A stretch of DNA of 53,751 nucleotides, from positions 1 to 53,751 of IMG/VR virus record IMGVR_UViG_2698536392_000015; one strand, written 5' to 3'. The notes under the pieces were generated by a model that saw only the letters and a list, made by a program, of their open reading frames with translations, was not told where the DNA came from and made no database searches. The translations under genes were made by a program, and so were the position numbers. The DNA comes from a virus. Lineage: Duplodnaviria > Heunggongvirae > Uroviricota > Caudoviricetes. Of the stretch, positions 5,574 through 49,313 are shown one piece after another. Each line of letters starts with the position of its first letter. Position 1 is the stretch's first letter.

Positions 5574-5995
5574 AAATCAAGCATGAACACATCCGCATGG
5601 CGATGAATGTCTGGGCGCATCCGGACGGCGAAAAAGTACCGGCTGCGAAAATTACCAAAGCGTATTTCGAGCTGGGAATGACGTTCCCGGAACTGTACGA
5701 CGACAGCCATCCGGAAGCCCTGGCCCGTAATACCCAGAAAATTTTCCGCTGGGTGGAGAAGGACACCCCTGATGCTGTTGAAAAAATTCAGGCTCTGTTA
5801 CCGGCGATCGAAAAGGCGATGCCGCCTTTGCTGGTGGCCCGTATGCGCAGCCACAGTTCTGAATATTACCGTGAGATCGTCGAACGGAGGGATCGGCTGG
5901 TGAAGGATGTCGATGATTTTGTTGCGTCAGCGGTTGTTTTGTATGACCAGATGAATCGCGGCGGCCCGGCAGGGAATGCTGTGGTGATGCACTAA
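5570..5995 (+). CDS. YdaT-like prophage protein (141 aa)
   Basis: N-terminal MKIKHEH and size match my recollection of Rac YdaT; position after the Cro-like gene. Confidence 0.45.
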   Translation: MKIKHEHIRMAMNVWAHPDGEKVPAAKITKAYFELGMTFPELYDDSHPEALARNTQKIFRWVEKDTPDAVEKIQALLPAIEKAMPPLLVARMRSHSSEYYREIVERRDRLVKDVDDFVASAVVLYDQMNRGGPAGNAVVMH

Positions 5996-23300: not shown

Positions 23301-23371
23301 TATTCCGCAAAGCCTGCCGCCTTTCCTTCACCGTTACGCTGACTCAGAGAACATCATGAGACAGCGTAACA

Positions 23372-31098: not shown

Positions 31099-31273
31099 TT
31101 GTTTAAGGTATGCAAATGCATTACCTTACCCCCTTCAGGCGCGTGTCGTGATTTTCTAACCTGTATTTAACGGGCTTTAAAATCTGCGTGAAGCGCCTTT
31201 GCATTTTTCCCTGAAAATACTTCCTGAAATCCCGCAAAACCCGCCCTGAAAATTCCCGGCTTATGCTGCCGGT

Positions 31274-43006: not shown

Positions 43007-44088
43007 TGCCTTATCAGCCTTTACCGCTGGCACAGTTAATCACGCAGACACAGCAGGATATCAGCCAGCGTCTTCCCGGTTCGCAGCCGGGCGTGAATGA
43101 AACCACCCTGAATGCCATTGCGTATGCTCAGGCAGGATTGTCTGCACAGGAGCATGAACATCTGGCCTGGATTGCACGTCAGATCATCCCGACAGAAGCC
43201 GATGAAGCCGAGTTGCTGAAGCACTGCGCTTTCTGGGGTGTCATGCGTAAACCCGCCTCACGGGGTGACGGGCCGGTTCAGCTGATGCTGACCACGGATG
43301 CGGGGATCACGGAAGGTGTGCTTCTCCAGCGCAGTGACGGCGTGGTTTACCGCATCACCTCCTCACTGACCGGTAAAGCCGGTACGCTGAATGTCAGTGT
43401 GGAGGCCGAAAGTGCCGGTCGTGCGGGAAATGCCCCGGCAGGGACGAAACTGACGTTTGTCACTCCGCAGGCGGGGATCAACCAGACGGCCACGGTGACC
43501 GGAACAGGGATCACCGGTGGTGCGGATGTGGAAACGGTGCCGGAGCTGCTTTCCCGTCTGGTTTTCCGGGTGCAGAATCCGCCGTCCGGCGGTACACAGT
43601 ACGATTTTGAACGCTGGGCGCGTGAAGTGCCGGGGGTGACGCGGGCATGGTGCCGCCCGGAATGGCCGCAGGCGGGCTGCGTGGGGGTGACGTTCGTTCA
43701 GGACAACAACCCGGACATTTTTCCCGGTGAAGGTGATGTGAAACGTGTGGCGGATTATATCCGCAGTCATGATGATCCGGCGACCGGTCAGCCTGTCGGT
43801 CAGCCGCTGGGGCCGACGGTGACCGTGTTTAAACTGACCAATAAGCCAGTGCCCTTCAGTATCAGGATCATCCCGAAAACACCGGAGAATCAGGCGGCAG
43901 TAAAACAGGCACTGACCGACCTGTTATACAACGAATCCCGCCCCGGCGGTCTGGTTCTGGCGTCGTCTTTCTGGCGTGCCGTGGCGGGGGTGAAAAATCT
44001 GGAGGATTTTGAAGTGCGCAGCCCGCTGACGTCGGTTCAGGCGGGAGACAGCGAGCTGCTGACAGTGGGGGAAATCACATGGCTGTAA
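43006..44088 (+). CDS. Baseplate J-like protein
   Basis: 360 aa; position between gp25-like and tail fibre genes. Confidence 0.75.
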   Translation: MPYQPLPLAQLITQTQQDISQRLPGSQPGVNETTLNAIAYAQAGLSAQEHEHLAWIARQIIPTEADEAELLKHCAFWGVMRKPASRGDGPVQLMLTTDAGITEGVLLQRSDGVVYRITSSLTGKAGTLNVSVEAESAGRAGNAPAGTKLTFVTPQAGINQTATVTGTGITGGADVETVPELLSRLVFRVQNPPSGGTQYDFERWAREVPGVTRAWCRPEWPQAGCVGVTFVQDNNPDIFPGEGDVKRVADYIRSHDDPATGQPVGQPLGPTVTVFKLTNKPVPFSIRIIPKTPENQAAVKQALTDLLYNESRPGGLVLASSFWRAVAGVKNLEDFEVRSPLTSVQAGDSELLTVGEITWL

Positions 44089-44639
44089 CCCTCACTCCGC
44101 ATCAGCGCGCCCTGTTGCAGTTGCTGCCTGACGGACTGGCCTGGGACAAGCGGCCGTCATCCGTACTGGCTGCGTTATGCCTTGGCCTCAGCCATTCCAC
44201 CGAACGTGTTGCATGGACGGGAAAACAACTGCTGGCAGAACGTTTCCCTGACAGTTCCCGTCTGCTTCTGGAAGACTGGGAGCGTTATCTCGGCCTTCCC
44301 GAGTGTGATATGGCCGGAGCCACCATCACAGAACGACAGCGTTATGCCGGGAATAAATACCGGATGAAGCCTTCGCTGAACCGTGAATTTTATATCAGGT
44401 TTGCGGCAGAGTTTGGTTATGAAATAGATATTCAGCCATCACCGGATTCACAGTGGGTCAGTATTGTCACGATAAACAGTGAAACCGGCTACCGGAATAT
44501 GAATGTGCTGGATGATATTCTCACGCCGCTGCGTATTTATGAGGGCGGTGCGCTGGAATGTATTCTGAATCGTTATAAGCCTGCATGGCAGACGTTTATT
44601 TACGTGTATGCAAACAGTCACGAAGAGGAGAATATTTAA
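44079..44639 (+). CDS. Tail protein (Mu gp48-like)
   Basis: 186 aa between baseplate J and fibre. Confidence 0.65.
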
Positions 44640-45550
44640 TGTTCCATGTTGATAATAATTCCGGCGTGGCGAATATGCCTGAACTGGCTCCGGCGCAGAG
44701 TAATACCACCACCTGGTTTACCGAGGGGGACGGACAAAAAGGTATCAGCTGGATTGGTCAGGACTGGCTGAATATTCTCCAGGCCGAACTGCTGAATATC
44801 CTGGATGAAGCCAGTATTCAGCCGGATAAGGCGCAGTTAAACCAGCTTACGCTGTCTATTAAAGCCATTATCGCTGCGAATGCTTTTTCCCGGAAAAATA
44901 ACCTGAAAGAAATTGCTGATGCCGGTGCGGAGGCCCAGCGTCTGGCCCGTGGTTATCTTGGTCTGGGGACGCTTGCCACAAAAAACAGTCTTGGTCCCGG
45001 TGACGTTAATGCCCTGGCGAAGGATCAGAATCTCGCCGACCTGGAGAATAAGGAAACCGCCCGTAATAATCTTGATGTTTACAGCAAGAGCGAAGGTGAT
45101 AACCGTTACCTGCGCAGGGAACAGAATGGTAAAGATATTGCGAACAAAAGTGCCTTTATCGATAACCTCGGTTTACGGGAAACGGTAAACAGGGCTGCAA
45201 ATGCCCTGCCATCGAATGGTACAGCCGTAGCGGCAAACAAGCTGTCTGCGGCACGTAAAATTAACGGTGTTGCGTTCGATGGCACAAAGGACATCACTAT
45301 TACATCCGGGATGACCCAGACTACAGCAGACGGCAGATATGTTCGTAATGTGCAACTTGGTGCTCAGAGCCGCCACTCTCCTGCGGGTAATGAAGTCACC
45401 TGGGATTATAAAACGCCAGCAGGTTGTATGCTTTCCGGTATTCATGTACAGGATACCGGCTCCCGGTCTGCGGATAATATCGGTGGGGTCTATTATCGCC
45501 CGGTTCAGATTTATATTAATAATGCCTGGAGAACGGTGAGTTCAGTGTAA
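44639..45550 (+). CDS. Tail fibre protein S (constant part plus expressed variable part)
   Basis: ATG overlaps upstream stop (TAATG); C-terminal part lies inside the invertible segment and is paralogous to the minus-strand cassette. Confidence 0.75.
45157..45190. repeat. Left recombination site of the invertible segment (gix-like)
   Basis: AACCTCGGTTTACGGGAAAC, matching the gix core as recalled; inverted copy at 46524-46556. Confidence 0.7.
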
Positions 45551-45584
45551 ACCACAGAAAAGGGTGCTGAATGCACCCTCTGAA

Positions 45585-46109
45585 TTATTCCGGTTTTTCC
45601 GGCCAGGAAATCGCCTGGTAATGCCCCTCACTGGCAATATCATTAAGGTGCATTTCTTTAAGCTGTCGGATATACGCCATCCAGCGCGTCAGCTGTAATT
45701 TATTTTCATCGCTAATCATGTCCAGTTTTAATTCCGTTTTCCAGTCATCCACAGTTTCGTTGGCTTCCTGGAGCAGCGATGAGCGGCGCTTTTCAGCAAC
45801 CGTATTCCAGTTTACCGGCACCTTTGATATCAGGCCATCAGAAAACTGCCAGTTACCGTCAATATTCACACCTTCTGGCAGTTCGTCCACTTCAACAACA
45901 GTAAAACCTGCCGGATATAAAGCAGAGACATCTTCAGCAACAGAGCAGATAATACCCGTTACAGGCGAAATACAGAGTTTGTATTTCTTTGTGAAAAGCG
46001 GGATAGATTCATAAAAATCCCTTCCGTCCTCACTCTGGAAATACTGAACATCCTCACCATAGGGTTTGTGTTCCGGGTAATATCGTTTTACGTTAATAAG
46101 CTCCATCAT
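45585..46109 (-). CDS. Tail fibre assembly protein (Tfa/U-like)
   Basis: Start MMELINVKRYY at 46109 with AAGGTGA RBS; conserved Tfa-like C-terminus (...WMAYIRQLKEMHLNDIASEGHYQAISWPEKPE). Confidence 0.75.
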   Translation of the reverse strand: MMELINVKRYYPEHKPYGEDVQYFQSEDGRDFYESIPLFTKKYKLCISPVTGIICSVAEDVSALYPAGFTVVEVDELPEGVNIDGNWQFSDGLISKVPVNWNTVAEKRRSSLLQEANETVDDWKTELKLDMISDENKLQLTRWMAYIRQLKEMHLNDIASEGHYQAISWPEKPE

Positions 46110-46185
46110 TTCACCTTGTTTTTGTTGAAAAGACAAAATCATCATATATTTATTCAGATAATCTGTTTTTTGAACTACTGCACTT

Positions 46186-46546
46186 TTATGCGCTGGAAGC
46201 TGTTTTCCACGAACCATCTATCAGAAACTGAACAGGTCGATAATATGCGGTTACCGTTGCATTACCATCACCAGCGACATCAAGCCCTGTAAGTACGCAT
46301 CCGTCAGGAACTTCAAAAATATTATATTGCATTCCAATCGTTGACCTTGAACCTCTTCGAATGCTTTGAACATAACGTAAGTCAGCCACAGACTGCGTCA
46401 TCCCCGATGTAATATTTATATCCTGCGTTCCGTCGAAAGGAACGCCATTAATATTTCTTGGTGTGGCGAGTCTGTTTGCTGCCACGGCGGTTCCATCCGA
46501 TGGCAGGGCATCAGCAGCCTTATTTACCGTATCCCGTAAACCGAGG
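46186..46546 (-). CDS. Promoterless alternative tail-fibre C-terminal cassette (S'v)
   Basis: Paralogous to the S C-terminus (...NGVPFDGTQDINITSGMTQ vs ...[19 protein letters not shown]); open frame runs up to the inverted repeat. Confidence 0.65.
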
Positions 46547-46556
46547 TTTCAGGGAT
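46524..46556. repeat. Right recombination site of the invertible segment (gix-like, inverted)
   Basis: Reverse complement reads AACCTCGGTTTACGGGATAC. Confidence 0.7.
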
Positions 46557-46610: not shown

Positions 46611-47171
46611 ATGCTGATTGGCTATATACGCGTATCAACAAATGACCAGAACACCGGTTTACAAAGAAATGCGCTGGAATGTGCAGGATGTGAGCAGATT
46701 TTTGAAGACAAAATGAGCGGAAAAACAACGCAGCGGCCGGGACTGAAGCGGGCACTGAAGAAACTAAAACCCGGTGACACACTGATGGTCTGGAAACTGG
46801 ACAGGCTGGGGCGCAGTATGCGCCACCTTGTTGCGCTGACAGATGAATTACAGCAACAGGGGATAAATTTTCGTAGTCTTACTGACAACATTGATACGTC
46901 AACCCCCATGGGGCGCTTCTTTTTTCACATAATGGGTGCGCTGGCAGAAATGGAGCGTGAATTAATTGTCGAACGGACACGGGCTGGTCTTGCAGCTGCC
47001 CGTGAAAGGGGACGAACCGGCGGCAGACCCCGCCGTCTCACGCAGGAACAATACGAGCAGGTTGGGCGTTTACTGGCCGGGGGTGTCAGTCGAAGACAGG
47101 TGGCACTTATTTTTGATATCGGCCTTTCAACCCTTTATCGTTATTATCCTGCGAGCGTTTCGGAAAAATAA
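46611..47171 (+). CDS. gin: Serine DNA invertase (Gin/Hin/Pin/Cin family)
   Basis: N-terminal MLIGYIRVSTNDQNT...RNALECAGCEQIFEDK and C-terminal HTH match Mu Gin as recalled; adjacent to the invertible segment. Confidence 0.9.
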   Translation: MLIGYIRVSTNDQNTGLQRNALECAGCEQIFEDKMSGKTTQRPGLKRALKKLKPGDTLMVWKLDRLGRSMRHLVALTDELQQQGINFRSLTDNIDTSTPMGRFFFHIMGALAEMERELIVERTRAGLAAARERGRTGGRPRRLTQEQYEQVGRLLAGGVSRRQVALIFDIGLSTLYRYYPASVSEK

Positions 47172-47270
47172 GACGCTCCCTTTGTTGGGCCTTTACTGAA
47201 TTAACGCAAAATGGCGTTTATCGGTCTGTGGATATGATAATTCTGTTTATTCAGGAACAGGCTGATTATT

Positions 47271-49313
47271 ATGACGTCCAAATGGGTTCAACTATCATCA
47301 ATGCCCGGAAACTTTACCGTTAAAGTTTCCGGTGGTACAGCGGCATTTCTTGAGGCTCCCTTTCCTCCGGCCGAAACAAAAGGAGGAATGACATTTGCTG
47401 ACTGTCTCATCAGTTTTAATACACGGGATTGCCTGTGGGTAAGGCCAGTATCCGGTGATCCGAGTGTGGAAATTACCGGAGCGGGTATCGGTGCGGTCAT
47501 TCCGTTAAGTGCTGATGTTGCCGGTACTGCTGAACCGTCAGACTGGGATAATGCTGAAACACATACCCGTCCGTCAGGAAATGAAACTGCTTCCAGCTCC
47601 CCTTCCTGGTATTACGTGGTGGTTCTTGCTGGTCAGTCAAACGGTATGGCTTACGGTGAAGGTCTGCCACTGCCGGAGACATATGATCGCCCCGAACCGC
47701 GTATTATGCAGTTAGCCCGTCGCAGTACTGTCACGCCGGGAGGTAAAGTCTGTCAGTATAACGACATCATTCTGGCCGACCACTGTCTGCATGATGTGCA
47801 GGATATGAGTGGAAAAAATCACCCGAAAGCGGATGTGGCTAAAGGGCAATATGGCACCGTGGGTCAGGGGCTTCACATTGCCAAAAAACTGCTGCCGTTT
47901 ATTCCGGCAGATGCGGGGATTCTGCTGGTTCCCTGCTGCCGTGGTGGTTCTGCATTCACGGCGGGTGCTGACGGCACGTACAGTGACAGCATGGGTGCTT
48001 CAGAGGACTCAGCCCGATGGGGTGTGGATAAGCCGCTGTATAAGGACTTAATCAGCCGGACAAAAGCGGCACTGGCGAAGAACCCGAAAAACCGCCTGCT
48101 TGCTGTGGTGTGGATGCAGGGCGAGTTTGATATTGATGCGAAGCCGACGGAGCATTCTGCGCTGTTTCTGGCGATGGTGGAAAAATTCCGCGCAGACCTG
48201 GCTGAACAGGCGGAACAGTGTACCGGTGGCAGTGCTGCTGGCGTTCCGTGGATTTGTGGCGATACCACGTATTTCTGGAAACAGAAAAATGAACCGGCAT
48301 ACCAGGCAATCTATGGCGGCTACAAAAACAAAACAGATAAAAACATTCATTTCGTCCCATTAATGACAGATGAAAATGGCGCGAATGTACCTACCAACAA
48401 TCCGACAGAAGACCCGGATATTGAATCCATTGGTTATTACGGCTCAACGTGGCGTAACAATGCTGCCACCTGGACATCTGCGGACCGGGCCAGTCATTTC
48501 AGTGCCTGGGCGCGCCGTGGGATTATTTCCGACCGTCTGGCCACGGCTGTTCTGACTCACGCAGGGCGAACCACAGTAAAAGCCGATGTTCCATCTTCTG
48601 AAACTGATGCGCCAACGCCGTCACCTTCAGAAGCTGAAACAGTAACCACAACAACACTGCTGTCTTACCGTGCCAGTGAGTCTGAAGGGAAGCTGACCGA
48701 ACAGGGCTGGAGTGCAGGTGGAGGTAAAGCGGAAATTGTTGCCGATGAAGGTGCAACTGGTGGAACCGCGATGAAGCTGAGCAAGGAGACGGGTAAAGGA
48801 TCATGGCATCTGGAGCATGATGCCGGTACTGGCGCTGAACTGCTGAAAAATGGCGGCTTAATCAGTTGCCGCTTTAAGGCATCCGGTGAACTGGTGGCAA
48901 ATCAGTATGTCATTGCACTTTACTGGCCGGTTTCCTCTCTGCCGCAGGGTGTCACCCTGACAGGGGATGCAGGGAATAATCTGCTGGCAGCGTTCTACAT
49001 CCAGACAGACGCAAAAGACCTGAATGTGATGTACCACAATGCAAAAGTGGCGACAAATAACCTTAAGCTGGGAACCTTTGGCGCATTTGATAATGAGTGG
49101 CATACGCTGGCCTTCCGCTTTGCCGGGAATAACAGCCTTCAGGTGACGCCGGTTATTGATGGTCAGGACAGTACACCGTTCACGCTGACGCAGTCACCGG
49201 TCAGTGCATTTGCGGCGGATAAACTGCATGTGACAGACATTACCAAAAATGCGACTTACCCGGTGCTGATTGACAGCATTGTGGTGGAAGTGAAAAAAGC
49301 GGTAACAGAATAA
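47271..49313 (+). CDS. SGNH/sialate-O-acetylesterase-like hydrolase with C-terminal lectin-like domain (680 aa)
   Basis: VVLAGQSNGMAYGEG resembles the GQSN motif of carbohydrate acetylesterases; Thr/Ser/Pro linker then a beta-rich C-terminal domain. Confidence 0.65.
   Translation: MTSKWVQLSSMPGNFTVKVSGGTAAFLEAPFPPAETKGGMTFADCLISFNTRDCLWVRPVSGDPSVEITGAGIGAVIPLSADVAGTAEPSDWDNAETHTRPSGNETASSSPSWYYVVVLAGQSNGMAYGEGLPLPETYDRPEPRIMQLARRSTVTPGGKVCQYNDIILADHCLHDVQDMSGKNHPKADVAKGQYGTVGQGLHIAKKLLPFIPADAGILLVPCCRGGSAFTAGADGTYSDSMGASEDSARWGVDKPLYKDLISRTKAALAKNPKNRLLAVVWMQGEFDIDAKPTEHSALFLAMVEKFRADLAEQAEQCTGGSAAGVPWICGDTTYFWKQKNEPAYQAIYGGYKNKTDKNIHFVPLMTDENGANVPTNNPTEDPDIESIGYYGSTWRNNAATWTSADRASHFSAWARRGIISDRLATAVLTHAGRTTVKADVPSSETDAPTPSPSEAETVTTTTLLSYRASESEGKLTEQGWSAGGGKAEIVADEGATGGTAMKLSKETGKGSWHLEHDAGTGAELLKNGGLISCRFKASGELVANQYVIALYWPVSSLPQGVTLTGDAGNNLLAAFYIQTDAKDLNVMYHNAKVATNNLKLGTFGAFDNEWHTLAFRFAGNNSLQVTPVIDGQDSTPFTLTQSPVSAFAADKLHVTDITKNATYPVLIDSIVVEVKKAVTE

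Follow-up and report, generated by a model that had tools for sequence, protein, structure and literature searches.

The window analyzed here is the whole 53,751-nucleotide stretch of the IMG/VR virus record IMGVR_UViG_2698536392_000015, which harbors a Mu-like Escherichia coli prophage of the Sp18 type. This prophage carries a Gin-type invertible segment that holds two alternative tips of the tail fiber protein S and a single gene, tfa, for a tail fiber assembly chaperone (Tfa). Outside the segment lies the constant 5' part of the fiber gene; inside it, each strand encodes one alternative 3' part. From left to right, the locus comprises the following features.

44079-44639, plus strand: homolog of Mu gp48.
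44639-45550, plus strand: fiber gene S, 303 residues, the start ATG of which overlaps the stop of the gp48-like gene.
44639..45167, plus strand: Sc, the constant N-terminal part of S, 177 residues, upstream of the crossover.
45156-45181, plus strand: left gix-like site, with the core TC at 45168-45169 and 23/26 positions matching Mu gixL.
45170-45550, plus strand: Sv(+), the tip now fused to S, allele P1, 126 residues plus stop, in frame with Sc.
45559-45581, no strand assigned: G+C-rich hairpin where S and tfa converge, terminator-like for a minus-strand tfa transcript.
45585-46109, minus strand: tfa, tail fiber assembly (chaperone) gene of the Caudo_TAP family, 174 residues, allele T1.
46110-46185, minus strand: AT-rich spacer of 76 nt between the S'v stop and the tfa start.
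46186-46542, minus strand: S'v, the promoterless alternative tip, allele M1, 118 residues plus stop, without a start codon of its own.
46531-46556, minus strand: right gix-like site, with the core GA at 46543-46544.
46611-47171, plus strand: gin, a serine DNA invertase of 186 residues with Resolvase N-terminal and HTH_7 domains.

The two gix-like sites are mutually inverted and share an identical inner stretch of 17 nt as well as matching 2-bp cores, enclosing an invertible segment of 1,375 bp. The 26-bp left site consists of TTATCGATAACC, the core TC and GGTTTACGGGAA, compared to TTATCCAAAACCTCGGTTTACAGGAA of the Mu gix site. The 17-mer AACCTCGGTTTACRGGA has exactly two copies in the window, at 45164-45180 (+) and 46532-46548 (-), where none is expected by chance. 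In addition, an inverted repeat of 181 nt with 76% identity (45164-45344 and 46368-46548) runs inward from the sites, and is evidently the common 5' coding part of both tip cassettes. The gin product matches the Pfam families PF00239 (1.4e-51) and PF02796 (1.7e-14), is 75% identical to Mu Gin, and contains the catalytic-serine motif YIRVST at its N-terminus (MLIGYIRVSTNDQ); the open reading frame (ORF) is intact. Over its 5' 239 nt, the part that would contain the Fis-bound recombinational enhancer (sis) of such systems, gin aligns gap-free with its Mu counterpart; Fis sites in general are too degenerate to be called from sequence. These features bear out the first-pass annotation of this DNA, which had drawn a 1.4-kb Gin-invertible segment between inverted gix-like sites: the window has two such sites that nearly match Mu gix, an intact gin lies beside them, and the limits it gave, 45157-46556, agree with the outer site edges to within 1 nt.

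Sc aligns with residues 1-191 of Mu S (chain 5yvq_A), with a domain i-Evalue of 1.8e-44 and 48% identity. The last ~74 residues of Sv(+) are homologous to residues 435-503 of Mu S, the distal ~70 residues of which are homologous to both tips. S'v shares 54% identity with Sv(+) and comes into frame with Sc after in-silico inversion. Sv(+) also resembles the tips of SfMu S' and a P2-like H protein (41-46% identity), both of which have a tfa gene directly 3' of them. The expressed C-terminus of S, together with a minus-strand tfa and S' cassette, had likewise been described for this segment, and all of them are present. Besides, residues 166-301 of S (45134-45541) match residues 417-553 of the solved “Short tail fiber” chain 9cuy_c / 9mjn (E = 9.5e-15), and the shaft region of S matches the “short tail fiber gp92” (9zd7).

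The assignment of tfa is based on a Pfam match to PF02413 (Caudo_TAP) at 8.3e-19, with 68.5 bits against a cut-off of 22.1, and on a match to Mu U (chain 5yvq_B) at 1.2e-15; the product is 30-34% identical to SfMu U, SfMu U' and P2-like G. Tail fiber inversion switches are a textbook form of phage bet-hedging on host range, and those of the Mu type as a rule provide each tip with a chaperone of its own. A Tfa gene usually lies immediately downstream of the fiber gene it serves and is co-transcribed with it. In the window orientation, by contrast, tfa converges with S and is antisense to the late operon, and only in the inverted orientation does it lie downstream of S'. In terms of gene order, though not necessarily of expression, this agrees with the first-pass statement that the inverted orientation alone would give S' followed by its assembly protein. 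Even in that orientation, the 76-nt spacer differs from the 2-4 nt found in Mu, SfMu and P2-like phages, whereas more distant tfa homologs start 17-20 nt after their fiber gene. The segment also departs from the Mu G segment, in which each tip has its own assembly gene, giving four coding units. A second assembly gene was found nowhere in the whole 53.7-kb window, either by tblastn with five Tfa queries or by a six-frame hidden Markov model (HMM) search. As the stop codons of S and tfa lie only 34 nt apart, and tfa is the sole Tfa homolog in the six-frame search, no hidden U-type gene follows S. A plus-strand assembly gene at this position, which would have refuted the asymmetric gene content claimed in the first-pass annotation, was searched for and not found.

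The inverted sequence was built in silico by recombination at the TC/GA cores, and both versions were searched against complete E. coli genomes, counting those colinear over at least 80% of the query. Altogether, the window orientation was matched in this way by 182 complete genomes and the inverted one by 25, as the predicted inversion of the segment would have it, and both orientations are present among O157:H7 strains. Strain SMN197SH3 possesses two copies, one per orientation; its inverted copy (L137) encodes an intact 295-residue Sc-S'v fusion, followed by the same spacer and by tfa on the same strand, which is the gene order, S' and then tfa, that had been foreseen for the inverted form. 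Moreover, many IMG/VR contigs end exactly at the gix site, as expected if assemblies hold both forms. Since both orientations occur in related genomes and even within one strain, the inversion is evidently real as a natural polymorphism among genomes. Of the four features that define Gin-type inversion systems, three are present, namely the invertase, the inverted sites and the two orientations. The notion that the segment is a fossil, in which the repeats of an old switch no longer recombine, might draw on the searchable literature, which gave no experiment on this phage. It is already contradicted by the two orientations among closely related O157:H7 genomes and within one genome, by the intact gin with its YIRVST motif, and by the crossover cores and inner half-sites that are identical between the sites, and we regard it as barely credible.

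The orientation also affects how the locus is annotated in O157-type copies (L137 907-1327 and L138/L002). In inverted copies, the automatic RefSeq annotation misses the intact 295-residue S' and calls a 67-residue internal fragment “tail fiber protein”, in addition to small ORFs antisense to the cassettes. In copies with the window orientation, it calls a 61-residue ORF across gixR. Such orientation-dependent mis-annotation is likely widespread in prophages of this type.

We compared the loci that share the constant part of S or the tfa gene, which fall into three architectures. Architecture A is the layout of the window, A-inverted is the same segment flipped, and architecture B is a deletion form without S'v and gin, in which S carries a P-type tip and is followed by an intact tfa that converges on it and then by the gene of a DUF6645 protein. 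Every Sp18-type locus recovered has one tfa, with two tips in architectures A and A-inverted, and in no locus of architecture A, A-inverted or B does a tfa follow the P-type tip. There are five tip alleles (P1, P2, M1, M2 and M3) and two tfa alleles (T1 and T2, ~60% identical). All loci examined have intact and diversified tip ORFs, with one exception. In the IMG/VR copy L016 (5532-7472), the P-type tip is frameshifted and gin is split, indicative of a decaying switch. Another locus, L027, was considered as a fourth architecture and rejected, as it is a truncated prophage next to host genes.

Architecture B is represented by the loci L007, L008, L009, L015, L029, L033 and L036 and the E. coli genomes H123-H130. 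It is a deletion derivative, the 304-nt junction of which retains remnants of the 3' end of gin and the 3' end of S'v. Devoid of S'v, gixR and gin, it is locked in the Sv(+) orientation. These prophages are rare (about 7 genomes vs about 207), but they are full-length, at about 35-36.5 kb, and diversified. Their tfa is also full-length, with a dN/dS (ratio of nonsynonymous to synonymous substitution rates) of 0.10-0.23 over dS values up to 0.43.

In Citrobacter braakii ATCC 51113 (L005 5800-8300; also L043), a related prophage, the constant S part of which is 74% identical to that of the window, has three gix-like sites, at 5820 (+), 7845 (-) and 8211 (-), three tips and one 229-residue tfa. 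As three tips are combined with one tfa, at least two of them must share a chaperone. After gin, this locus continues with a collagen-repeat fiber-like gene and then a tfa fragment that reaches the end of the retrieved sequence. In contrast, canonical four-gene segments with one tfa per tip are found in the more distant relatives L038, L114, L117 and L128, and in the locus L139 of enteropathogenic E. coli (EPEC). In these relatives, as in Mu, SfMu and the EPEC locus, the canonical tfa genes abut or overlap their fiber gene. On this comparison, the single-chaperone segment is a derived layout that is stably inherited in the clade, and neither a local deletion nor an annotation gap.

The canonical segments of these relatives make the loss of one tfa a plausible origin of the layout. 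They also lend themselves to a bleaker interpretation, namely that a former U gene was lost and the window orientation is defective, giving virions with no fiber or a misfolded one, either as an ON/OFF control of infectivity or as decay. In the same direction, Sp18 DNA is packaged and Mu-like particles were seen, yet the prophages that were transferred to K-12 did not include Sp18 (PMC2669165), and some copies are decaying, such as L016. However, the failure to transfer may merely reflect receptor specificity. Many genomes retain Sv(+), which has diversified into two allele families and was seen disrupted in one copy, and this tip predominates among genomes. Moreover, the layout persists in both E. 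coli and Citrobacter, and the prophages locked in Sv(+) are full-length and diversified. Altogether, we consider a defective window orientation improbable.

Which tip the chaperone serves was approached through the allele combinations. T1 was found with P1/M1 and P1/M2, whereas T2 was found with P1/M2, P2/M3, P1 alone and P2 alone. Co-variation of tip and tfa as a means of assigning a partner tip was accordingly abandoned, for no pairing emerged and the alleles reassort freely. All tips end in the motif YYRP(V/L)Q..(I/L)..G.W, which is also present in Mu S. The closest tfa homologs outside the clade are 56-60% identical and lie directly downstream of fiber tips, and the tips beside them are 44-67% identical to Sv(+), compared to 34-42% to S'v. 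In the summary of North et al. 2019 given in PMC9608196, the N-terminal domain of Tfa binds the fiber tip, whereas the C-terminal domain drives trimerization; the same account has Mu Tfa remaining on the mature fiber and virion and being needed for assembly. The free reassortment, the common tip motif and the outside tfa homologs beside Sv(+)-like tips favor a generic Tfa.

Gin recombines the two inverted gix sites and flips the 1,375-bp segment, which connects the 177-residue constant N-terminus of S to tip P in one state, that of the window, and to tip M in the other. We propose that the single Tfa acts as a generic chaperone for whichever tip is expressed, and that it would do so by recognizing the C-terminal motif common to all tips. 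If Tfa is generic, the switch would exchange only the ~120-residue receptor-binding tip and thereby economize on the chaperone. We hold the structural part of this proposal with high confidence. The whole statement, that one shared chaperone serves both tips and is expressed in both orientations, seems to us about evenly balanced between true and false.

Several observations weigh against expression of tfa in the window orientation and hence against a chaperone shared by both orientations. By consensus scan, no sigma-70-like promoter was found upstream of tfa on the minus strand of the window, and none in the 76-nt spacer. The corresponding scan of L007 gave a weak TGGACA-17-CATATT at the deletion junction, in a total that is not above that of shuffled sequence. 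In Mu, genes inside the G segment are expressed only from a promoter outside it. A tentative late-promoter box, CGCAAAR-N19-25-TANNNT, is absent from the invertible segment, which is weak negative evidence, as the motif was derived from few sites. The signal of purifying selection in the locked derivatives may have been imported by recombination, and the rarity of these derivatives points the same way. In addition, the three spacer types (76, 57 and 125 nt) showed no convincing promoter when inspected by eye, and a looser 8-mer search for late promoters was uninformative.

The box was derived from the regions upstream of lys and I, that is, from very few sites. It has three instances in the window, at 23306-23340, 31233-31267 and 47205-47238 (+), against 1.9 expected, which is not above chance. 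They lie just upstream of lys, I and the DUF6645 gene, respectively; the first two resemble Mu Plys and PI, and the third overlaps a dyad that is possibly the gin terminator. We regard the three boxes as candidate C-dependent late promoters.

The intact tfa in the locked derivatives would argue that the gene is used while convergent with S. Their low dN/dS was nevertheless rejected as proof of tfa function, because the signal may predate the deletion. It is also confounded, since the tfa genes are not monophyletic and the junction is more conserved, at 95-96% identity, than the genes on either side, at 85-93% (tfa about 90%, the 5' end of the DUF6645 gene 85-93%).

The lack of a detectable tfa promoter inside the segment would also fit an orientation-specific chaperone, in which case tfa would belong to an S'-tfa late operon and be transcribed in the inverted orientation alone. 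The hairpin at 45559-45581 resembles a terminator for such an operon: a scan for terminators marks the minus strand there (45581..45559), with a T-rich tail, and L007 and L005 have an equivalent hairpin. The Sv(+) fiber would then be chaperone-independent, or Tfa would be borrowed from another prophage or from a copy in the opposite orientation, and inversion would toggle the tip and a Tfa cap together. The Sv(+) fiber does appear to work, because its orientation is the commoner one (182 vs 25) and its alleles are intact and diversified. Sources for borrowing are at hand too, as host strains frequently harbor more than one copy along with numerous other prophages, a single genome having up to 9 matching places, and strains of the CC119 lineage hold 1-3 Mu-like phages each (PMC10132054). 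However, the homologous tips in SfMu and P2-like phages each have their own tfa, Sv(+) has no extra C-terminal domain able to act as an intramolecular chaperone, and the locked Sv(+) derivatives retain an intact tfa that would be useless to them. The persistence of Mu Tfa on the mature fiber and its requirement for assembly, as summarized in PMC9608196, also argue against a fiber that dispenses with it. On balance, an orientation-specific Tfa is unlikely, though it deserves to be kept in view.

A related and somewhat more doubtful idea is that inversion changes the receptor-binding tip and the presence of Tfa on the fiber at once. The Tfa of Mu has been reported to bind host surfaces. If the idea is true, the two types of virion would differ both in tip sequence and in having or lacking a Tfa cap, and the commoner orientation would make a fiber of a normally chaperone-dependent family without a chaperone of its own.

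Compared to the Mu G segment (NC_000929 31966-35025; S, U, U' and S'), the segment in the window occupies the same place, after the gp47/gp48 homologs and before gin and com/mom. The two also share near-identical gix sites, Gin proteins of 75% identity, a constant S N-terminus with alternative C-termini, and a Tfa of the same family as U and U'. However, they differ greatly in size and content. The segment spans 1.38 kb here vs 3.06 kb in Mu, and the tips about 120 residues vs about 320-335. It has three coding units instead of four, with no tfa following the tip expressed in the window orientation, and a spacer of 76 nt before tfa instead of 2 nt. Furthermore, extra genes, including that of the DUF6645/SASA esterase, separate gin from com.

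The G region of SfMu is likewise a Gin-type tip swap in a Mu-like enterobacterial prophage, but it keeps one tfa per tip. The Min system of plasmid p15B is a multi-site fiber inversion system, and the three-repeat fiber inversion locus of an EPEC P2-like prophage (PMC4272514) follows the same principle, in which several promoterless tip cassettes are brought onto one constant gene; the window has two sites. For the “Mu prophage” of EPEC E2348/69, inversion was shown experimentally (PMC4272514). Its segment is also a Gin-type tip swap and short (1.9 kb), but it has one tfa per tip, and its repeat, AAACCTTGGTTTGGGAGAA, is of a different type from the gix-like sites of the window. We therefore rejected this prophage as direct evidence for the present switch, as it carries a different, canonical four-gene segment.

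Two records of Shiga toxin (Stx)-converting phages contain an “inserted Mu-like phage” that shows 100% identity to the region, and prophages in many genomes of Shiga toxin-producing E. coli (STEC), including O157:H7, are 94-99.7% identical to it, with the same gene order. The element is the known Sp18-type Mu-like E. coli prophage, and the window is an Sp18-like phage inserted into an Stx phage of the CC119 lineage. Such insertions of Sp18-like phages into Stx phages of this lineage were described by Nakamura et al. 2023 (PMC10132054). Mapping to the record LC727895 shows that the Mu-like phage spans about 12.6-51.9 kb of the window (~12576-51912), with Stx-phage DNA at its flanks. A 4-bp repeat adjoins the right end, where LC727895 annotates a duplication due to insertion. 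Asadulghani et al. 2009 described Sp18 as a Mu-like prophage of E. coli O157:H7 Sakai and judged it intact; they also noted that its host-specificity region is invertible, with genes distinct from those of Mu, i.e., atypical (PMC2669165).

Between gin and com/mom, a place where Mu has no gene, a 680-residue gene at 47271-49313 (+) encodes a SASA (sialate O-acetylesterase) domain and a C-terminal DUF6645 domain. This gene lies beside the switch in all Sp18-type loci, and its alleles are very divergent, at 61-94% identity. The gene might serve lysogenic conversion, or its product might be an enzyme that is associated with the virion and modifies the receptor.

The switch as such is already known from Sp18, and in this respect the biology is incremental; the new part is the single-chaperone layout across the clade. 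In the searchable literature, we found no account of the single-chaperone asymmetry or its clade-wide conservation, nor of the three-tip relative and the locked deletion derivatives. STEC commonly carry the element, which also inserts into Stx phages and is predicted to be intact; its host range is therefore of practical interest. One chaperone for two tips, or for three in Citrobacter, points either to a group of Tfa proteins generic enough to be shared or to a fiber that can assemble without a Tfa of its own. Assembly without its own Tfa would change the recombinant expression of such fibers, whereas a shareable Tfa would be useful for engineering fibers with swapped tips and would bear on the evolution of the specificity between tips and their chaperones.

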